Virus record (IMG/VR): IMGVR_UViG_2734482779_000004
Span: 1 to 27,850 of that record
Reading direction: 5' to 3' (one strand)
DNA from: a virus
Taxonomy: Duplodnaviria > Heunggongvirae > Uroviricota > Caudoviricetes
DNA: 27,850 nucleotides
Shown: piece by piece, positions 13,670 through 25,773 of the stretch
How the letters are laid out: each line of letters begins with the position of its first letter
Position numbering within the stretch: position 1 is the first letter of the stretch
The notes under the pieces: generated by a model
The model's input: the letters and a program-made list of their open reading frames with translations, nothing else
Told to the model about the DNA's origin: nothing
Databases searched by the model: none
Position numbers and translations under genes: made by a program

Positions 13670-14028
13670 GCGTTCTCCAGTTCGGTGATTTTTATTCCAA
13701 GCCTTCCGCCTGGAACTTTCACGCCACGAATTACGCGAATGTCATCGAATTGCTCGTCATCTTACGCAAATCCGGCGTGGATAAGGGAGTCGAGTAAACC
13801 TTTCAGGATGTTGTCGAGGTCGCGGCGGCGGGAGTCTGGAACGTCTGCGATGACTTTGATGCGGAGTCGTGATTTGGTGAAAATATCTAACTTGAGTTGG
13901 TGGATGATTTGCTGGACGTCTTTTCGGTATTTCTGGCCTTTATCGCTTATGTAATATTGGCTTCCCCGTCTTCGCCAGTAGGTATTCACCGACGGCGGGT
14001 ATGGAAGCACAAACTGATATTCGTTCAT
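13666..14028 (-). pseudogene. rusA: rusA Holliday-junction resolvase interrupted by an in-frame TAA at codon 89
   Basis: The 88-aa ORF (MNEYQFVLPYPPSVNTYW...DSRRRDLDN...HAGFA) ends at TAA (13762-13764); the same frame continues DDEQFDDIRVIRGVKVPGGRLGIKITELENA to a TGA overlapping the ninH start. Total is 120 codons, the RusA length. Confidence 0.75.
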
Positions 14029-14315
14029 GACTTAATCTTCCCCTCCCTCAGCAGTATCGCCTGCGTTCTGATCACGCCTTCGAGGTGGTAAAGTCTGGCG
14101 TCTTTGTTGTCGAGATTATGGGTGCGTCGGTCGATTTCATCGTGACACGCACTACAAGCCCATGCACCGATCAGGTCGTCAGGCTTCATTCCCGTTCCGC
14201 AAATTCCAGCCATCCGGTAATGTGCCAGAACTGTAGTTTCAGGGTTGCCATTGCATACGCCGTAAATACGTACCTGGCATTCTCTGCCGCGCGCTTCTTT
14301 GCGTAGGTTAGCCAT
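14025..14315 (-). CDS. YbcO-like (DUF1364) putative zinc-binding nuclease
   Basis: 96 aa with Cys/His cluster (C..C, CSACHDEID) and position immediately upstream of rusA, as ybcO is in DLP12-type nin regions. Confidence 0.6.
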   Translation of the reverse strand: MANLRKEARGRECQVRIYGVCNGNPETTVLAHYRMAGICGTGMKPDDLIGAWACSACHDEIDRRTHNLDNKDARLYHLEGVIRTQAILLREGKIKS

Positions 14316-15546: not shown

Positions 15547-15719
15547 TTCCTCGCACGATGTCTTAGCCACCGGATATCCCACAGGTGAGCCGTGTAGTTG
15601 AAGGTTTTTACGTCAGATTCTTTTGGGATTGGCTTGCGTTTATTTCTGGAGCGTTTCGTTGGAAGGTATTTGCAGTTTTCGCAGATGATGTCGGTGATAC
15701 TTCGTCGCTGTCGTCTCAT
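15543..15719 (-). CDS. ninE: NinE
   Basis: 58-aa ORF below the track's length cut-off: [58 protein letters not shown]. Its ATG overlaps the ninB stop and its stop overlaps the next gene's ATG. Confidence 0.7.
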
Positions 15720-16126
15720 TCGTACCTCCTGTCGGTAAATCTGACACCCTGACCAATAGCCCAGGCTGTTGTGTACTCGATCAGACTTGCCATGCGCTTC
15801 ACGCTCATCTGCGCGCTGCTTTCGCGAATGTTGACGTATTCGCCTTCAAGGCCGGGCAAAACATCAGCTTCCTGCTTTGTTGCCACTGCATGACCGCTGA
15901 TCAACAAAACCTTCCATTGTTCTGGTTTTAACCATTTATCGCACCATTGAACCTGACGAGCGATATCCGCCAGCATCGCGTGAAATTTTGCGTTCTGGTC
16001 AAGATTTCGCTTGTAGTCAGTAATGCGGATTGTGACTGGCTTGTCTTTATCGAGTGGTGTTGAGAGGATGGCATTTATTGCGGCTTGCTGTTGTTGCTTA
16101 CTTCGGAGGAAGATTGTTTGCTTCAT
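15716..16126 (-). CDS. ninB: NinB (recombination protein, Orf family)
   Basis: 136 aa. ...[30 protein letters not shown] matches lambda NinB (RSLDQNRKLWACLGDVSRQVEWHGRWLDAESWK). Confidence 0.85.
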
Positions 16127-18233: not shown

Positions 18234-19076
18234 TCACTCCTGCGCCCATGAAGGCATTTCAGTTTGTCCGTAATCTTTGGTGGCAAAGTTTTCCTGCATA
18301 GCTCGATGCTGCGGCCTCGGTTGAGATTTCCCCTTTGGAGTCTTGGGCTCAAAAATCCCCTGCCAACCACTGGCGATGCTCTGGTTTATAATTTCTTCAG
18401 GTGTATATCCCTTCTCCAGACTTCTGCTTAGAACGTTGATAGCCTGAGTGACACTTTGCTTAGACTTGATCGACTTACCTATCTCCTTGCGATAGGTAAC
18501 CCACGACAACCATGTTTCTGCTGATAACCAATCAGGCAACTCTGTTTCTAGCGGGTCGAACTTCTGAGAAACTTTTTTGGGGGATATAGGGGGTTTATTA
18601 ATATTTTCTTTTGTCTTTAAAGAATGTCTTTTGTGTGTCTCTAACTTCGAGACATTGAGTGTCTCTAATTTGGAGACATTTTTTGTCTCTAACTTCGAGA
18701 CAAAGTTGCTAACTTGGAGACACTTGCTGAATTGCCACGCAGATACCTCACTGTTTACACCGATTTGATTTCCATCCATAAACAGGCAATTCATTGAAAT
18801 CAGTTCTTTTTTAGCCTTGTTAACATTCTGCCTTGACAGTCCTGTTAACTGAGCAATTTGCTCATCGGCTATTCGATCTGTTTTCTTATTGAATCCATAT
18901 GTTTTCCGGACGTAGGCCAGCATAACTTTCAACTGGCGAGCGGTTAAATCGGCACTTGCGATAGCTTCCAGCAGCTCGTTAGCGAATCTGGTGTAACCAT
19001 CATCGATATCAGCCACTCTTCGCTCCTGTTCAACAGGTTCACTCTTCGGCAGGTAAAATACTTCAGCAAGGCTCAT
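18234..19076 (-). CDS. O: Replication initiator, lambda O-like
   Basis: N-terminal region (ERRVADIDDGYTRFANELLEAIASADLTARQLKVMLAYVRKTYGFNK) resembles the lambda O DNA-binding domain. The track ORF starts at a TTG (19109); ATG at 19076 has GGAGG 7 nt upstream. Contains the ori iterons. Confidence 0.8.
   Translation of the reverse strand: MSLAEVFYLPKSEPVEQERRVADIDDGYTRFANELLEAIASADLTARQLKVMLAYVRKTYGFNKKTDRIADEQIAQLTGLSRQNVNKAKKELISMNCLFMDGNQIGVNSEVSAWQFSKCLQVSNFVSKLETKNVSKLETLNVSKLETHKRHSLKTKENINKPPISPKKVSQKFDPLETELPDWLSAETWLSWVTYRKEIGKSIKSKQSVTQAINVLSRSLEKGYTPEEIINQSIASGWQGIFEPKTPKGKSQPRPQHRAMQENFATKDYGQTEMPSWAQE
18590..18721. repeat. Replication origin inside the O gene: four 17-bp iterons plus an adjacent AT-rich region
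   Basis: GTCTCTAACTTCGAGAC (18636-18652), GTCTCTAATTTGGAGAC (18661-18677), GTCTCTAACTTCGAGAC (18685-18701), degenerate GTTGCTAACTTGGAGAC (18705-18721), spaced 20-25 bp, with AT-rich 18590-18635. Same layout as lambda ori. Confidence 0.7.
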
Positions 19077-19707
19077 TTCCAACCTCCGCATCAAAGCATT
19101 GGGCTTCAAGAGACTTAACCATCACCACACTGCCATCTGTATTAATAACTATCGATGAGTTATATTTGCTTATCAGTTGCTTCGCGTAATCAATTCCGGC
19201 GCGAATAAGGAAATTTTTCACCGCAGGAAGATGACCAACTACACTACCCAGACCTTGCTCTATAAGCTCCTCATTAAGATCAAGCTCATTTTCATGGCGA
19301 AAAGAAATGAATGAGTCGTAAATTGCGTATTCTGCCGTCTCGCCATTTCTTTCAGGGCCAACCAGCGCCCTTATTTCATTTAGAGATTCAGAAAGATCAT
19401 TATCTTCAAGCTTGAAAAACTCTCGATTATCACTAAGCCTCTCTTTTGCAAAGGCTTTATGAATGAGTTTTTCATCTGATGCGGGATTATTTGAATGAAA
19501 GGCTGCTATCACCTTAAATGGCTTAGGAACGCCAGTAGAGGCTGAAATTTCTTTAGCCCTAACTTCTGGTGAATGCTTAGTCATCCCAATCTTATAAATT
19601 CCTGGCATGCACTCATTCGAAAGCACATAAACAAAGCCATTTGATTTAAAATCATCTGGAACCTTCATGCTCTTCAGAACCTGGAATTTGTCATTTTCGT
19701 ATGTCAT
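19063..19707 (-). CDS. T5orf172 / GIY-YIG-like domain protein inserted between cII and O
   Basis: 214 aa, ATG with AGGAG 6 nt upstream. N-terminal FVYVLSNECMPGIYKIGMTKHSPEVRAKEI...FKVIAAFHS fits the T5orf172/MUG113 pattern; the C-terminal ~100 aa are not recognised. Confidence 0.6.
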   Translation of the reverse strand: MTYENDKFQVLKSMKVPDDFKSNGFVYVLSNECMPGIYKIGMTKHSPEVRAKEISASTGVPKPFKVIAAFHSNNPASDEKLIHKAFAKERLSDNREFFKLEDNDLSESLNEIRALVGPERNGETAEYAIYDSFISFRHENELDLNEELIEQGLGSVVGHLPAVKNFLIRAGIDYAKQLISKYNSSIVINTDGSVVMVKSLEAQCFDAEVGNEPC

Positions 19708-20394: not shown

Positions 20395-20468
20395 ATAATA
20401 CGATATGTACTTTTAGAATGCAAACAAAAAATACATCTTGTGCATGGATGGTTTTAGTACAGAGCGTA
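20395..20468. promoter_or_regulatory. OR region: pR and three candidate operator sites
   Basis: Minus strand pR: -35 TTGCAT (20418-20423), 17-bp spacer, -10 TATTAT (20395-20400). Candidate 11-bp TAC-N5-GT sites at 20399-20409, 20432-20442 and 20458-20468, spaced 33 and 26 bp. Confidence 0.45.
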
Positions 20469-20485
20469 ATAATAAGGGTATGAAA

Positions 20486-21139
20486 ATGAAATGGTATGAA
20501 CTGGCTAGATCCAGAATGAAAGAGCTCGGCATAACTCAAGAGAAGTTAGCTGAAGAGCTTGGTATGACGCAGGGTGGAATTGGTCACTGGTTGCGCGGAT
20601 CTCGTCATCCATCTCTTGACGAGATTGGTGTGGTGTTTAAATACCTTGGTATTGATAACGTCTCATTCAACCACGACGGTACATTTTCACCTGTTGGCGA
20701 ATACTCATCTGCCCCCGTTAAAAAACAATATGAGTACCCTGTTTTTTCTCATGTTCAGGCCGGGATGTTCTCGCCTGAGCTTAGAACCTTTACCAAAGGT
20801 GATGCGGAGAGATGGGTCAGCACAACCAAAAAAGCCAGTGATTGTGCGTTCTGGCTTGAAGTTGAAGGTAATTCCATGACCGCGCCAACAGGATCCAAGC
20901 CAAGCTTTCCTGACGGGATGTTAATTCTCGTTGACCCTGAGCAGGCTGTTGAGCCAGGTGATTTCTGCATAGCCAGACTTGGTGGTGACGAGTTTACATT
21001 CAAGAAACTGATCAGGGATAGCGGTCAGGTGTTCCTACAGCCACTAAACCCGCAATATCCAATGATTCCATGCAATGATAGCTGTTCCGTAGTAGGGAAA
21101 GTTATCGCCAGCCAGTGGCCTGAAGAGACATTTAGTTAA
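20486..21139 (+). CDS. cI: CI repressor (HTH plus LexA-like S24 autocleavage domain), non-lambda immunity
   Basis: [26 protein letters not shown]; C-terminal S24-type domain with [10 protein letters not shown] and FTFKKL. Start is ambiguous between ATG 20480 and 20486; 20486 has better SD spacing. Confidence 0.85.
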
Positions 21140-21363: not shown

Positions 21364-21535
21364 AGCATTCAAAGCAGAAGGCTTTGGGGTGTGGTGAAGG
21401 GTTCATGGATGGGAATATGTCGCACGTAAAGCGGCGAGGCCTGCGGAACTATTGCCGAATTGAAGTCGGCCGAAGCAGGTCGAAATGGGTCTCCCACCTA
21501 CCACACCACCAAAGCTAACTGACAGGAGAATCCAG

Positions 21536-22433
<898 letters not shown>

Positions 22434-22646
22434 TTAAAAGACAGGCATACTAATAAACACTGCACTGTGTATTTATTCCAACGAGTGAATACACGGAGCA
22501 ATGTCGCTCGTAACTAAACAGGAGCCGACTTGTTCTGATTATTGGAAATCTTCTTTGCCCTCCAATGTGATGGCTTTTTTATATGCATACCAATAACGCT
22601 TCACTCGAGGCGTTTTCGTTATGCAATCAAATATAAGGAGTTACCC

Positions 22647-22781
22647 ATGATGCACTTTCAGCTCGCGGGTAGCGGCGTCATGTCCGCTTTCTACCCGCAC
22701 GAATCTGAATTATCACGCCGAGTTAAACAATTAATCAGAGCAGCAAAGAAACAACTGGAGGCGTTATGCGCAATGAAATAG
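22647..22781 (+). CDS. cIII-like protease inhibitor (small protein)
   Basis: 44 aa from ATG 22647 with AAGGAG 6 nt upstream: MMHFQLAGSGVMSAFYPHESELSRRVKQLIRAAKKQLEALCAMK. Weak resemblance to lambda cIII (ES.L.R...KL amphipathic helix); first pL-operon gene after N. Confidence 0.45.
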   Translation: MMHFQLAGSGVMSAFYPHESELSRRVKQLIRAAKKQLEALCAMK

Positions 22782-22918
22782 CCATTAATCACCAGATGCT
22801 TCGTGCTGCACAGAACAAAGCAGTAATAGCCCGATTTATTGGTGATTCAAAAATGTGGCTTGAAGCAAATAAAGCGATGAAATCAGCTATCAACCTTCCG
22901 TGGTATCGCAGGAAATGA
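22766..22918 (+). CDS. kil: Kil-like small protein
   Basis: 50-aa ORF below the track cut-off, GGAGG 5 nt upstream of ATG. IARFIGDSKMWLEANKAMKSAI resembles lambda Kil (IATFIGDEKMF...). Confidence 0.5.
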   Translation: MRNEIAINHQMLRAAQNKAVIARFIGDSKMWLEANKAMKSAINLPWYRRK

Positions 22919-23022
22919 GTTTTACAGATAACTGGTCAGACGAAGAATTCATTCGTCAGATGAAAGAAATGCTCAATCAGCACAAAGAACAGGAGAAAGA
23001 TGATGATTCTGACTCTGAATGA
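22915..23022 (+). CDS. Small acidic hypothetical protein
   Basis: 35-aa ORF (MSFTDNWSDEEFIRQMKEMLNQHKEQEKDDDSDSE) whose ATG overlaps the kil-like stop (ATGA). Confidence 0.25.
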   Translation: MSFTDNWSDEEFIRQMKEMLNQHKEQEKDDDSDSE

Positions 23023-23311
23023 TAAGCGTGAAATATCGCAAATAATCGCAAGTTTTACTGATGAAGATTACGAACGAATCAACAGTGAAGTTGATCGCCT
23101 CTGCAAACGTTGCGACCCAATAAGCGAAATGCTTCGCTCATATAAACCAGATGAACACACTAAGGACGCTATCGACTGGCTGGAAGATGATGACTGTAAC
23201 TATCAGGAAAAAGCCGCTGAATGGTTCTGGGATGCAATAACCGAAAGAGTTAAGGCTGAATATGCCTTCGCAATATTCAAACGCAGACACATTTTTGGAG
23301 AAGCTGCATGA
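23003..23311 (+). CDS. Hypothetical early-left protein
   Basis: 102 aa; AGGAG 7 nt upstream of the second ATG; overlaps the recT start by 4 nt. Confidence 0.45.
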   Translation: MILTLNDKREISQIIASFTDEDYERINSEVDRLCKRCDPISEMLRSYKPDEHTKDAIDWLEDDDCNYQEKAAEWFWDAITERVKAEYAFAIFKRRHIFGEAA

Positions 23312-24216
23312 GCAATATCGTTGAATTCGTTAAACAGCAGGAGCAGTTATTCTGCGGAGCATTGACTGAACAGACGGTGACATGGGCTAAGGAAAGCCAG
23401 TTTGCAATTCAGTATTTCCAGAAAAACGATTACCTGGCTAAAACAGCACTGGCAAATCCAACCAGCGCACAGAACGCCATCATCAATGTTGCGGCGATCG
23501 GCATCACCTTAAACCCGGCCAGCAAACTGGCTTATCTGGTTCCGCGCGACGGCATGGTGTGCCTTGATATCAGTTATATGGGATTGCTCCATATTGCAAT
23601 GGAGTCTGGTGTTATCTCATGGGGTCAGGCAAAACTTGTTCATGCTAACGATACCTATGAGTCAAACGGGCTTGATAAAGCACCAACCCATAAATACAAC
23701 GCCTTCGGTGATCGTGGTGATATCGTTGGCGTTTACTGCACAGTTAAGACGCCAGCAGGTGATTATCTAACGGAAGAGATGAGTCTGGCTGAAATTGAGG
23801 CTGTAAGGAAAACAAGCAAGGCGGCCTTCAGCGATAAAGGACCATGGGTAAATCACTGGAATGAGATGGCGCGAAAGACGGTCGTAAAGCGTGCAAGCAA
23901 GTATTGGCCTAAGGCATCACGTCTTGATAGTGCTATTCACGTACTAAACGAAGAAGAAGGTGTGTGGACTGAACCAGTTATGCCGCACAAATCAGAGGAA
24001 GATATCCGCGAAGATGAACGGAAACGCCAGCAGGAAATAACGGATAAAGCACAACTTCTTTGTGATGAAATGGCTCAGGCTGAAAACATGGATGACCTTA
24101 AGCGCATCTTCGCTAATGCCTACAGGCTCACACATGGTATGAAGCTGCAACAAAACGTCCAGGCAGTCTACATGGAATGTAAAGAAAAAATAGAGATTCG
24201 GCATGAAAGCGTCTGA
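23308..24216 (+). CDS. recT: RecT-family single-strand annealing recombinase
   Basis: 302 aa; the region LAYLVPRDG...LDISYMGLLHIA...GDIVGVYCTVKTPAGD fits the RecT family as remembered from Rac RecT-type proteins. Confidence 0.8.
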   Translation: MSNIVEFVKQQEQLFCGALTEQTVTWAKESQFAIQYFQKNDYLAKTALANPTSAQNAIINVAAIGITLNPASKLAYLVPRDGMVCLDISYMGLLHIAMESGVISWGQAKLVHANDTYESNGLDKAPTHKYNAFGDRGDIVGVYCTVKTPAGDYLTEEMSLAEIEAVRKTSKAAFSDKGPWVNHWNEMARKTVVKRASKYWPKASRLDSAIHVLNEEEGVWTEPVMPHKSEEDIREDERKRQQEITDKAQLLCDEMAQAENMDDLKRIFANAYRLTHGMKLQQNVQAVYMECKEKIEIRHESV

Positions 24217-24670
24217 ATTGTTTCGTTATGAAGATGGATTGCTTTTTTGGCGGATTAAGCCAGCACGATGGATGAGGGCTGGTGATAAGGCAGGAGGAAA
24301 AACAAAATCTGGCCATTGCATTGTAAGCATTAACGGAAAAAGAGAATACGTGCATAGGGTTGTATGGGAAATTCACCACGGTGAAATTCCAGAAGGGATG
24401 GTAATAGACCATATCAATGGAAACCCGAGTGATAACCGAATAGAAAACCTTAGGTGCGTCTCTCAGCAAATAAATCTTCTGAACAAGAGAAAACAGAAAA
24501 ATAACACATCTGGCATTACTGGAGTTGGGTTTCACAAGCAAAGAGGAAAATGGAGAGCCACATTCATGAATGAGTATCTTGGGTCGTTTGGTAGCTTTGT
24601 CGACGCCTGCGAGGCAAGGATAGTTGCTGAGGTTTCTTCTGGGATCTCCACTGAGAGGAATGGCAAATGA
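24203..24670 (+). CDS. HNH homing endonuclease (HNH_3 with AP2-like domain)
   Basis: 155 aa. YVHRVVWEIHHGEIPEGMVIDHINGNPSDNRIENLRCVSQQIN is the HNH_3 signature; SGITGVGFHKQRGKWRA is AP2-like. Confidence 0.8.
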   Translation: MKASELFRYEDGLLFWRIKPARWMRAGDKAGGKTKSGHCIVSINGKREYVHRVVWEIHHGEIPEGMVIDHINGNPSDNRIENLRCVSQQINLLNKRKQKNNTSGITGVGFHKQRGKWRATFMNEYLGSFGSFVDACEARIVAEVSSGISTERNGK

Positions 24671-25149
24671 GCAAACTGTATGAAATTGCCAATGAATACG
24701 CAAAGCTGATGGATTCAGATTTAGAACCAGAGATGATTGCTGACACAATAGAAGGCATGGAAGGAGAATTTACCGATAAAATAGAGCAACTTCTTGCCAT
24801 TATTAAAAATGAATCTGGTTATGCTGAATGCCTCAAGGAAGAGGCAAAGTCACTAAATGAACGAGCCGCAGTAATTCAAAATAAGATTGACAACATTATG
24901 GCGTATATAGCGTCATCGCTTGAAATGGTTGGCAAGAAAAAGATTCGAGCAGGTATTCACCAGGTAACAATCCGCAAACCGTCAGAAACTGTAGAAATCA
25001 TCGACTCAAGCGCCATTCCTCCTGAATACGTTGAGTTTGAAACGACAATTAAAGCCGACAAGTTGGCAATCAAACACCAACTAAAAGCAGGAATAAATAT
25101 CCCCAGCGCTCAACTCAAAGTTGGGAAACCTTCACTTCTTATCAAATAA
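24667..25149 (+). CDS. Siphovirus Gp157-like protein
   Basis: 160 aa. N-terminal MSKLYEIANEY..L...LEPEMIADTIEGMEGEFTDK resembles the Gp157 family; ATG overlaps the HNH stop. Confidence 0.55.
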   Translation: MSKLYEIANEYAKLMDSDLEPEMIADTIEGMEGEFTDKIEQLLAIIKNESGYAECLKEEAKSLNERAAVIQNKIDNIMAYIASSLEMVGKKKIRAGIHQVTIRKPSETVEIIDSSAIPPEYVEFETTIKADKLAIKHQLKAGINIPSAQLKVGKPSLLIK

Positions 25150-25160
25150 CGGTATCGCCT

Positions 25161-25475
25161 ATGAAAAAGACTCCATGGGAGAAATGGGAAGTCGATTTCT
25201 TACGCGAAGTAGCGGCGACAATGCCAGTTGAAGTTATCGCTGAAAAACTGGAAAGGACTGAAAAAGCAGTAATGGCGAAAGCAACAAGGATTGGCGCTGA
25301 CATTGTTAGCCGACTTCGTGGAAGACGATGGACAAGAGCCGAAGTATCACTTTTCGGTAAGTTCTCCGCAGAAGAAATAGCAATTGCAACCTGCCGCTCA
25401 ATTTATTCAGTAAGAGCTATGCGATACAAGCTAAAAAAACTCGATGAAGAAAGAGCAGGCATACGAATAAATTAA
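25161..25475 (+). CDS. Hypothetical protein
   Basis: 104-aa ORF in the co-oriented early-left chain. Confidence 0.4.
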   Translation: MKKTPWEKWEVDFLREVAATMPVEVIAEKLERTEKAVMAKATRIGADIVSRLRGRRWTRAEVSLFGKFSAEEIAIATCRSIYSVRAMRYKLKKLDEERAGIRIN

Positions 25476-25491
25476 CATGGAGTAATTAACA

Positions 25492-25773
25492 ATGAAGCTA
25501 AACATCGACCTCGGAAAATACGTTATTACCGGAACCAAACACGATCTGATTCTTAGCGAAAGAGGAATTATCAAAGAAGGCGAGAATGCAGGCAAAGAAA
25601 CACTAAGTCGTATCGGTTATTACAGCAAGTTTGAGCATCTGGTTAAAGAGTTATGCAACCGTGAAATCCTGTTATCTCAGGCGCAGACGCTACAGGATAT
25701 TCAGCAACATATCGAGACTTTAGGTGTGTCACTTAGCATGGCTGTTGACCAGTTCGTGGAGAGTAAATCATGA
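25492..25773 (+). CDS. Hypothetical protein
   Basis: 93-aa ORF; stop overlaps the next ATG (ATGA). Confidence 0.4.

Follow-up and report, generated by a model that had tools for sequence, protein, structure and literature searches.

Gene content of the recombination region

The window, i.e. the whole 27,850-nt stretch of DNA that was analysed, derives from a phage or prophage of the lambdoid group: N and cI are of the lambda type, cIII and kil are present, and the portal and coat genes are of the P22 type. Its early-left operon is carried on the + strand and runs up to a xis-like gene at the right end of the window, with int and the far left arm lying beyond view. Pfam was run on 38 window ORFs, which took in the early-left operon in full, N and the xis-like gene included, together with the majority of ORFs of at least 90 aa elsewhere, other than four at the far left (1–3261). 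Within the early-left operon we identified the following features.

23000–23311, + strand: 103-aa ORF (102 aa from the second Met), overlapping recT by 4 nt (ATGA); PHROG 3486, function unknown
23308–24216, + strand: recT, encoding a 302-aa single-strand annealing protein of the SAP-4 type; PF03837, E 5.6e-32
about 24065–24690 (boundaries approximate), + strand: mobile cassette spanning the final ~130 nt of recT in recoded form, the HNH ORF and ~20 nt from the start of gp157
24203–24670, + strand: gene for a free-standing HNH_3 homing endonuclease, 155 aa; PF13392, E 1.6e-23
24667–25149, + strand: gp157 (Sipho_Gp157), 160 aa; PF05565, E 7.4e-36; phrog_253, E 5.5e-52
25161–25475, + strand: 104-aa ORF with two tandem helix-turn-helix-like repeats; phrog_323, E 2.8e-20

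The initial annotation of this DNA had listed recT, an HNH gene and gp157, and all three ORFs were found where it had placed them, with their families matched by Pfam. The core gene order is thus the 103-aa ORF, recT, gp157 and the 104-aa ORF, with the HNH gene placed between recT and gp157. This four-gene core is kept in ∼300 Escherichia coli genomes and 80 viral contigs: the recT–gp157 pair was present in 301 of 5,426 E. coli genomes, the trio of recT, gp157 and the 104-aa gene in all 80 IMG/VR loci, and the 103-aa gene as well in 77 of these. A promoter and terminator scan of positions 21400–25600 returned matches that were no commoner than in shuffled sequence. Furthermore, the window contains no Chi sites, as against 0.65 expected, which fits an anti-RecBCD phage and carries no statistical weight.

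Absence of an exonuclease gene

No lambda-Exo/YqaJ or RecE gene, the mark of a two-component RecT/Red-beta system, adjoins recT in the window. Moreover, Pfam detected no YqaJ/lambda-Exo, RecE or PD-(D/E)XK exonuclease among the 38 window ORFs, in line with the earlier statement that recT has no exonuclease partner here. The remaining nuclease-like genes of the window are YbcO (14025–14315), a T5orf172 gene (19063–19707) and the terminase.

This absence had been presented as an anomaly, a view that does not survive comparison with the literature. The same type of module is already listed for phage HK140, as SAP-4 plus MuGam without nuclease and without SSB, in a survey in which 84 of the 246 Rec modules from lambdoid phages have no nuclease gene (Zheng et al., 2025; PMC12315714). 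In phage Gally the same module has been named recT-gam-abc1, and Gally from which it was deleted still formed virions and was able to lysogenise (Misson et al., 2023; PMC9928086). What the region contains is a lambdoid Rec module of the HK140 type, an already described kind that lacks a nuclease gene, and a RecT without an exonuclease is both documented before and common in lambdoid phages.

A dedicated exonuclease might nevertheless be encoded beyond the window, which stops at the xis-like gene and does not cover int or the far left arm, or be hidden among the small unassigned ORFs, several of the early-left ORFs being DUF5405, DUF2737, DUF7739 and DUF551 proteins. We consider this extremely improbable. 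In HK140, Gally and Louie, for which complete genomes are available, none is annotated from the repressor to xis; HK140 was placed in the nuclease-less class after AlphaFold-based inspection (Zheng et al., 2025; PMC12315714); and the unassigned ORFs are all ≤ 181 aa, with none matching a nuclease family.

A mobile HNH cassette at the recT–gp157 junction

The HNH gene overlaps the genes on both sides of it: its start lies 14 nt within recT, an overlap that had been reported earlier and that we confirmed from the ORF coordinates, whilst the start of gp157 overlaps its stop codon (ATGA). The HNH motif (...DHINGNPSDNRIENL...) is intact in the translation, as judged by eye, and the PADLOC homing-endonuclease (HEase) models match the protein (1e-7). 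The product had originally been labelled HNH/AP2; the first half of this label stands on the PF13392 match, and the second half does not, as the Pfam AP2 model (PF00847) gave only a partial, sub-threshold resemblance, confined to the first 20 of its 54 positions (E 0.02; 15.6 bits, the cut-off being 33.3).

When the window is compared with HK140, Gally and Dewey, the HNH gene stands out as 469 nt inserted precisely at the junction. Rather than being fixed at this site in all relatives, it was found in four of the ∼300 E. coli genomes with recT–gp157 and at the junction in none of the 80 IMG/VR loci. Similarly, amongst ∼11 sequenced phages with the module only Louie carries it, with a protein 100 % identical to that of the window, and it is missing at the module in HK140, mEpX1, Gally, Kapi1 and Dewey. 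More distant copies nevertheless occupy the same position. In a prophage of a Ca. Erwinia dacicola assembly (locus L091), the HNH protein at the same site is 94 % identical, as against 81 % for RecT and 78 % for Gp157, and the discrepancy between the HNH protein and its neighbours therefore indicates recent lateral spread. At the nucleotide level, identity to this prophage is about 70–80 %, rising to 90–97 % only across about 24085–24685. In Pantoea phage PdC23, an HNH protein of 52 % identity is encoded between erf and gp157, in the same slot and with the same ATGA overlap.

The insertion, which forms part of a cassette of ∼600 nt, is accompanied by a change in the gene that precedes it. Compared with HNH-less alleles, recT is 98–100 % identical, dropping to ∼73 % across 24065–24198, and of the 32 codons that differ amongst the last 50 of recT, 20 are synonymous. 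This 3′ variant of recT was present at ≥ 95 % identity only in the four HNH-bearing E. coli genomes, with the other 293 records at 60–80 %. These comparisons show a precise, rare and horizontally transferred insertion that brought with it the recoded last ∼40 codons of recT. The earlier suggestion of a selfish insertion is therefore upheld, the gene being precisely inserted, sporadic and better conserved than its flanks across hosts.

In the mechanism that we propose, the HNH enzyme would cut HNH-less alleles near the junction of the recT tail and gp157, the cassette would be copied in by repair from an HNH-bearing genome, and the recoded tail, together with the disrupted junction, would render the carrier immune to its own enzyme. 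The divergent end of recT could, however, be a co-conversion remnant of a diverged donor instead of an immunity change. The locus is a clean natural example of an HNH homing cassette travelling with part of the adjacent gene in recoded form, and could be used for mapping the target of the enzyme.

Alternatively, the HNH endonuclease might contribute to the function of the Rec module itself, replacing the exonuclease by making breaks or nicks for RecT recombination. Such a role has been proposed in phage ES18, where the HNH gene is tightly packed, and HNH is among the four Rec-module nuclease types of the same survey, there with a warning about mobility (Zheng et al., 2025; PMC12315714). The window gene is likewise tightly packed, with overlaps at both ends, and a related HNH gene holds the same slot in PdC23. 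We nevertheless regard this role as very unlikely: the gene is missing from ∼297 of the 301 E. coli recT–gp157 genomes as well as from this junction in all of the IMG/VR loci and from the five phages named above, the 94 % identity amid flanking proteins of 78–81 % points to recent lateral spread, and it is homing-endonuclease models that match the protein.

The annealase and its C-terminal tail

The window RecT scored above the curated cut-offs of both PF03837 (111.3 bits against 24) and TIGR00616 (82.5 against 52.65). The Rac RecT equivalog model NF007351 was not reached (101.8 bits against 296), and the window protein is therefore not an orthologue of Rac RecT. It is laid out as a RecT core followed by a C-terminal tail of ∼48 aa (about aa 251–298). 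This tail is 54 % identical to that of the Erf annealase of PdC23 (E 1e-14) and is common to all 18 gp157-linked annealases tested, the PdC23 Erf included. The Rec protein of phi80 shows another arrangement, in that its core is RecT-type and 59 % identical to the window RecT, whilst its last ∼76 aa are 74–76 % identical to the C-terminal domain of lambda Bet, with exo next downstream.

As such, the C-terminal tail of the annealase varies with the downstream gene and not with the annealase core. The finding that Exo is accompanied by a Bet-type tail and Gp157 by a different one, carried by RecT and Erf cores alike, is new here; the analysis of partner domains in annealase tails had been left open by Zheng et al. 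(2025; PMC12315714). The correlation could reflect physical linkage, as the tail is encoded beside gp157 and mosaic breakpoints alone could suffice to produce it. Nevertheless, the pattern yields a testable prediction, namely that Gp157 binds the annealase tail.

A Gam-fold protein encoded upstream of recT

The 103-aa ORF had no Pfam or NCBIfam match, and the lambda Gam model (PF06064) did not match it even at E-values up to 10. The profile of its family likewise returned nothing significant from PDB sequences. More sensitive comparisons, however, connect it with Gam. The family HMM matched the Gam protein of another locus (L093) with an E-value of 4.2e-5, and BLASTP gave 34 % identity over 73 aa (E 8.6e-4); the two have a motif, DDDxx[FY]QE, in common. 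An hhalign comparison of the family with lambda Gam gave an E-value of 8.8e-4, far above the shuffle null, at a low probability of 23 %, and the 103-aa protein also has the GamS fold. Furthermore, the gene holds the Gam slot directly upstream of the annealase gene, where it alternates with lambda Gam (in Dewey and loci L090, L093, L096 and L107) and with phi80-type GamL (L092, L098, L102, L105 and L108). Both the fold of the 103-aa protein and the position of its gene are thus those of lambda Gam.

The protein is all-helical, with no residue invariant across the family, and its closest 90 %-identity cluster holds > 1,000 sequences. The initial annotation had offered two guesses for this ORF, a host-nuclease inhibitor or a divergent exonuclease; the former is favoured by fold and position, and a nuclease, a divergent exonuclease included, was rejected on account of the size (∼100 aa), the all-helical make-up and the lack of any invariant residue. 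At locus L104, an annealase seemed to be fused to a 103-aa-like domain in a single protein of 437 aa; this proved to be an artefact of masked N runs and was rejected as fusion evidence of a functional link.

The protein is most likely a divergent RecBCD inhibitor of the lambda Gam type, and we treat it as a candidate that would block RecBCD in the manner of lambda Gam. A Gam-fold assignment is hereby given to a family that had no functional annotation in Pfam, NCBIfam or PHROG. The corresponding gene of HK140 (gp42) was not counted as an anti-RecBCD protein by Zheng et al. (2025; PMC12315714). If the assignment is true, each RecT–Gp157 module surveyed pairs a Gam-type with a MuGam-type protein, a pairing that the 2025 survey scored in one phage only.

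Gp157 as a probable partner of the annealase

The product of gp157 matched PF05565 over its entire length (124 bits against a cut-off of 28.6; profile positions 1–162 of 162). The gene sits where exo sits in lambda and phi80, and its family adjoins RecT, Erf or Sak4 annealases in unrelated phages. PHROG 253 bears the label 'Mu Gam-like end protection', Gp157 is called MuGam by Zheng et al. (2025; PMC12315714), and gp157, Mu gam, DUF2483 and DUF1351 have been described as occupying one slot beside annealase genes (Steczkiewicz et al.; PMC8093625). Gp157 had also been linked to phage-resistance phenotypes. We rejected this connection as a database echo; Gp157 has been associated with a PER element, an origin-type stretch of non-coding DNA comparable to that of phage Sfi21 (302 bp), and it is to this element that the resistance is attributed (PMC6356513), so that the phenotype appears to belong to the DNA.

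With respect to Mu Gam itself, the Pfam model Phage_Mu_Gam (PF07352) did not match Gp157 at E-values up to 10, as against 4.1e-42 for Mu Gam. The Gp157 profile found nothing significant amongst PDB sequences. An hhalign comparison of Gp157 with the single Mu Gam sequence gave an E-value of 0.046, which was lowered to 0.011 by the use of diverse Gp157 and Mu Gam alignments, over 60 colinear columns at a probability of just 3.8 %. The latter scored 22.1, with the shuffle null at 11.9 ± 2.0 (maximum 17.2), and none of 150 shuffles attained this score. Taken together, these comparisons weakly suggest a relationship between Gp157 and Mu Gam.

The neighbouring 104-aa protein points in the same direction. 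PHROG 323, to which it belongs, also takes in P22 Abc1 (1.3e-23) and Mu gp9 (5.2e-29). BLASTP aligned the 104-aa protein with Mu gp9 (E 5e-5) and gave no alignment with P22 Abc1, a true homologue of which occupies the same slot at locus L101. In Mu, gp9 is encoded directly upstream of gam. Judged from sequence, the 104-aa protein has its nearer relative in Mu gp9, and may be a more remote one of P22 Abc1.

Gp157 could instead be a different kind of annealase accessory, such as a loader or mediator, an adaptor that brings in a nuclease or helicase of the host, or a cryptic nuclease acting in place of Exo. Its gene stands where exo does in other modules, and the annealase tail changes together with it, in parallel with the Bet tail and Exo. 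In addition, every module surveyed already has a protein with the Gam fold, next to which a second RecBCD blocker looks redundant. Besides the failure of the Pfam Mu Gam model, neither Mu Gam nor Ku was returned by fold searches with Gp157, and the weak matches given by Foldseek were to PD-(D/E)XK and RecB-like phage exonucleases (best E 1.3e-3). Against this stand the 60 columns colinear with Mu Gam, well over the shuffle null, the Mu gp9-like neighbour, as in Mu, and the Mu Gam-like label given by PHROG and two expert groups. An enzymatic role is further disfavoured by the diverse Gp157 alignment, across which no catalytic-type residue is conserved, with no conserved acidic or histidine residues in the C-terminal domain. 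On balance, we find a different accessory unlikely, and favour a Mu Gam-like protein.

According to this preferred scheme, Gp157, probably a Mu Gam/Ku-like end-binding dimer, would fill the partner position held by Exo in lambda. It would probably dock on the tail common to RecT and Erf, holding or protecting dsDNA ends for RecT, whilst ssDNA would be supplied by host nucleases and helicases or by replication forks and not by a phage exonuclease. We note that a Gam-fold and a MuGam-like protein within one module look redundant if both merely block RecBCD. A bolder proposal, which we think unlikely, is that Gp157 is the actual replacement for Exo rather than a second blocker of RecBCD, binding dsDNA ends, docking on the ∼48-aa tail acquired by the unrelated RecT and Erf cores and coupling the ends to host resection. 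The 103-aa family would then be a third sequence type amongst the RecBCD inhibitors with a Gam fold, so far unannotated and carried by hundreds of prophages of enterobacteria. If Gp157 does replace Exo, this would constitute a third kind of two-component phage recombinase, consisting of an annealase and an end-binding adaptor and free of a nuclease.

The locus as a whole is probably best explained as a nuclease-less Rec module of the HK140 type, made up of the Gam-fold 103-aa protein, RecT, Gp157 and a Mu gp9/Abc1-like helix-turn-helix protein, with a free-standing HNH cassette lodged between recT and gp157; its mechanism is inferred from sequence. For recombineering, modules of this kind suggest minimal sets of an annealase plus accessory proteins that work without a phage exonuclease.

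Comparison with known modules

The closest counterparts are the modules of HK140 and Gally, which have the same genes in the same order and no nuclease, with a nucleotide identity of 96–98 % apart from the HNH gene; the window copy differs by the addition of the HNH cassette.

With the lambda Red (gam-bet-exo) and phi80 (gamL-rec-exo) modules the window shares its operon position after cIII and kil, and in all three a Gam-fold gene lies directly upstream of an annealase gene whose product bears a C-terminal partner tail. Unlike these modules, however, it has gp157 where they have exo, and its annealase tail is unrelated to the Exo-binding domain of Bet and phi80 Rec. Moreover, the 103-aa protein represents a third sequence type, traced to lambda Gam only via profiles and structure.

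Like the erf-abc1-abc2 region of P22, the window has a lambdoid Rec module with an annealase and without a phage exonuclease, and in both an Abc1-family (PHROG 323) gene follows the annealase region. In contrast to P22, the window module has RecT instead of Erf, and Gam-fold and Gp157 proteins in place of Abc2 (PF11043), which is missing; there is therefore no sign in it of a RecBCD hijack via RecC. In BLASTP comparisons with Abc1, Abc2 and Arf of P22, the ORFs of 104, 93 and 103 aa gave no alignment, and the DUF5405 ORF was therefore rejected as Abc2.

As regards phage Mu, Gp157 (160 aa) and Mu Gam (174 aa), the latter a Ku-like protein that binds dsDNA ends, are close in length, their C-terminal domains align colinearly with weak significance, and each is adjoined by a helix-turn-helix gene of PHROG 323. 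They differ in that Mu Gam belongs to a different Pfam family and has an extra helix inserted in its C-terminal domain, and in that linkage to an annealase is constant for Gp157 but not a feature of Mu gam.

Finally, the HNH gene resembles the seg and mob genes of T4, which specify free-standing (intron-less) phage homing endonucleases, lie between conserved genes and occur sporadically, with co-conversion of their flanks. The window gene likewise sits between two conserved genes, neither of which is disrupted, is sporadic and has a co-converted flanking stretch, and sequence differences at its putative target site could provide immunity. It differs from seg and mob in that the enzyme is of the HNH_3 family, with only a sub-threshold AP2-like region, and in that it resides inside a recombination module, the products of which could aid its own homing.

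The recT module and its genomic setting

The feature centred on recT is a known, nuclease-less Rec module that carries a rare homing-endonuclease cassette. Every ORF of the initial annotation was found where it had been placed, on the + strand, which is the direction of an early-left operon comprising a cI-type repressor, lambda N, cIII, kil and then the module; the AP2 label of the HNH protein reflects only a sub-threshold, partial match.

Genes of the early-left operon (+ strand) and nin region
20438-21139, cI-type repressor gene
21485-21859, lambda N
23000-23311, 103-aa ORF, PHROG of function unknown, no Pfam or NCBIfam match
23308-24216, recT, 302 aa, PF03837 (E 5.6e-32)
24203-24670, HNH gene, 155 aa, PF13392 (HNH_3; E 1.6e-23), overlaps recT by 14 nt
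24667-25149, gp157, 160 aa, PF05565 (Sipho_Gp157; E 7.4e-36), ATGA overlap with the HNH stop
25161-25475, 104-aa ORF, PHROG 323
15716-16126 (-), nin region, NinB (lambda Orf family)
14025-14315 (-), nin region, YbcO, PF07102, 'putative nuclease'

The absence of an exonuclease partner, already noted in the initial annotation, was borne out: no YqaJ/lambda-Exo, RecE or other PD-(D/E)XK exonuclease was detected in the 38 ORFs scanned, a set that takes in the operon from N as far as the xis-like gene and the greater part of the remaining window. This absence is real yet ordinary. HK140, mEpX1, Gally, Kapi1 and Louie are 96-98 % identical to this stretch, 301 out of 5,426 complete E. coli genomes carry recT-gp157, and all 80 of the closest IMG/VR loci encode RecT, gp157 and the 104-aa protein (77 with the 103-aa gene too). 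Three short contigs of 1.9-5 kb (L094, L097 and L103), assigned to Actinomycetes, Micromonospora and Streptomyces assemblies, bear a 103aa-RecT-gp157 module of enterobacterial type, with 68-71 % protein identity; contamination of the assemblies is a likelier source than an actinobacterium.

The window is an enterobacterial lambdoid phage or prophage, the remainder of which encodes O- and DnaC-like replication genes, NinB, NinX, YbcO, Q and lysis genes, as well as a P22-type terminase, portal, scaffold and coat. With NinB, a recombination mediator, and YbcO in the nin region, the phage has extra recombination-related functions outside the early-left module. Chi sites (GCTGGTGG) number zero on both strands of the 27.85 kb against 0.65 expected, which is not statistically informative; the count is compatible with the class of lambdoid phages that have anti-RecBCD proteins and no Chi (PMC12315714).

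Between kil and the 103-aa gene lies a 40-aa ORF (22900-23022, +), the N-terminus of which matches both PHROG 2123, which bears the label 'recombinase', and PHROG 17766; its position is roughly that of P22 arf, which comes after kil. Just after N, on the opposite strand and in the sieB position of lambda and P22, a 167-aa gene (21852-22355, -) is placed in PHROG 1244 (function unknown), carries C-terminal CxxC pairs, has no Pfam or PADLOC match, and adjoins a hairpin (22356-22378) that is terminator-like on both strands. A 214-aa T5orf172/MUG113-domain gene (19063-19707, -), located between cII and the O replication gene, matches two PADLOC models for candidate defence systems, PDC-S57 (6.4e-29) and PD-Lambda-1 (8.5e-12), and may have a defence role in the prophage or be a further selfish nuclease; an HNH gene occupies the equivalent place in Louie.

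The HNH cassette

Alignment of recT loci with and without the HNH gene showed 469 nt (24199-24667) to be precisely inserted where recT meets gp157. This insert is lacking in HK140, Gally and Dewey, and so is not fixed in relatives; recT and gp157 are both intact, and still overlapping, around it. The gene was found in four E. coli genomes only, always at this junction, and Louie is the only sequenced phage with it. Up to about 24065, recT is 98-100 % identical to HNH-less alleles, then ∼73 % as far as the insertion. This variant 3' end is present at ≥ 95 % identity solely in the four HNH-bearing genomes (60-80 % in the other 293 records), and 20 of the 32 differing codons among the last 50 of recT are synonymous.

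The same arrangement occurs in L091, a prophage from a Candidatus Erwinia dacicola assembly, with protein identities to the window of 94 % (HNH), 81 % (RecT) and 78 % (Gp157). At the nucleotide level the two loci are ∼70-80 % identical except within about 24085-24685, where identity reaches 90-97 %; the transferred unit thus comprises the HNH ORF together with the final ∼115-130 nt of recT. Pantoea phage PdC23 encodes a 52 %-identical HNH protein at the corresponding position, likewise with an ATGA overlap, but there an Erf annealase gene lies upstream. Judged from sequence, the cassette features fit a free-standing homing endonuclease, which would cut HNH-less alleles close to the recT/gp157 junction, and the carrier would be immune by virtue of its recoded recT tail and split junction. 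The original view of a selfish insertion is thus upheld by an insert that is precise, sporadic and laterally transferred with a recoded recT end. The early regions of Louie, Dewey, the Erwinia prophage and the cross-species loci L093, L101 and L107 contain further, different HNH genes at other positions, with 31-43 % identity to the cassette HNH (Louie's second copy is outside this comparison); HNH genes are recurrent sporadic insertions in these early operons.

The 103-aa ORF is a predicted Gam-fold protein

Sequence and position agree in assigning the 103-aa ORF as a predicted Gam-fold protein. The ORF is a member of a genuine family (∼100 aa, homologues down to 28 % identity), and its AlphaFold2 model, of five helices, is confident (pLDDT 91.6, pTM 0.78). 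In hhalign the family matched lambda-type Gam (E 8.8e-4), with a common DDDxx[FY]QE motif at colinear positions and a score of 24.8, reached by 0 of 150 column-shuffled targets (10.8 ± 2.1). A lambda-type Gam was also matched by the family HMM (E 4.2e-5) and by BLASTP (34 % identity over 73 aa, E 8.6e-4), and phi80 GamL aligned near end-to-end (hhalign E 0.005). Across the cross-species loci and Dewey, the ORF directly upstream of recT is of three types.

ORF directly upstream of recT
lambda Gam: Dewey, L090, L093, L096, L107
phi80-type GamL: L092, L098, L102, L105, L108
103-aa family: L091, L095, L097, L101, L103, L106

The 103-aa family also precedes a partly masked recT in L104, where a seeming 437-aa protein that joins a 103-aa-like domain to the RecT C-terminus (1528-2841) was rejected as an artefact of a masked N run, and a distant member precedes erf in PdC23. 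Of the two roles first suggested for this ORF, exonuclease is disfavoured, as the lack of any invariant residue in the family argues against an enzyme, whilst host-nuclease inhibitor gains from the Gam fold and Gam slot. Zheng et al. (PMC12315714) list both GamL and MuGam, their name for Gp157, in HK639 only; the HK140 counterpart, gp42, was therefore not scored there as anti-RecBCD.

Gp157 and the 104-aa neighbour

PHROG 253 (Gp157) is labelled 'Mu Gam-like end protection', Mu Gam itself being PHROG 491. Support for this relationship is consistent and weak: hhalign of 15 Gp157 sequences (down to 27 % identity) against six Mu Gam homologues (down to 41 %) aligned whole C-terminal domains colinearly (E 0.011), scoring 22.1 versus 11.9 ± 2.0 for shuffles (0 of 150 reached 22.1), and the 104-aa ORF next to gp157 has a homologue beside Mu gam. 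Other tests lent no support: the Pfam Mu Gam profile did not match Gp157, and fold searches with Gp157 were uninformative or negative. The 104-aa ORF is homologous to Mu gp9 (E 5e-5), which lies immediately upstream of Mu gam (1483-2326 of the Mu locus) and has two tandem HTH-like repeats; PHROG 323 unites both with P22 Abc1, and this HTH family is repeatedly paired with Gam-like genes.

Across phages Gp157 adjoins RecT, Erf or Sak4 annealases, in agreement with PMC8093625, and no annotated exonuclease gene stood beside gp157 in the loci fetched. In Pseudenterobacter timonensis (L099:3774-4942) an IS3-type transposase pair (HTH_Tnp_1 and rve) lies directly upstream of gp157, at the expected annealase place, and this looks like a decayed module. 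The phage-resistance link first ascribed to Gp157 appears to derive from a non-coding origin-type (PER) element rather than the protein (PMC6356513).

The annealase tail and comparison with known Rec modules

The final 48 aa of PdC23 Erf and HK140 RecT are 54 % identical (E 1e-14), their cores being unrelated in sequence, and this tail is encoded in 18 of 18 gp157-linked loci tested. In phi80 Rec, a RecT-type core 59 % identical to the window RecT ends in ∼76 aa that share 74-76 % identity with the C-terminal domain of lambda Bet, with exo next downstream. That domain reportedly binds lambda Exo and SSB (Caldwell et al., in 2019). By analogy, we infer that the shared tail may be a docking site for Gp157; alternatively, the tail-partner link may reflect physical linkage of tail and gp157 on the DNA.

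The module type itself has been described, as its relatives and two studies attest: Zheng, Casjens, Davidson, Amundsen and Smith surveyed 246 lambdoid Rec modules (Genome Res 2025, PMC12315714), and Misson et al. (PMC9928086) named the Gally version recT-gam-abc1, deletion of which did not abolish virion production or lysogenisation. This analysis adds two points: the assignment of the 103-aa family to the Gam fold, and the association of the annealase tail with the partner gene that follows it. The classical precedent is P22, which, like the window, has an annealase without a phage exonuclease.
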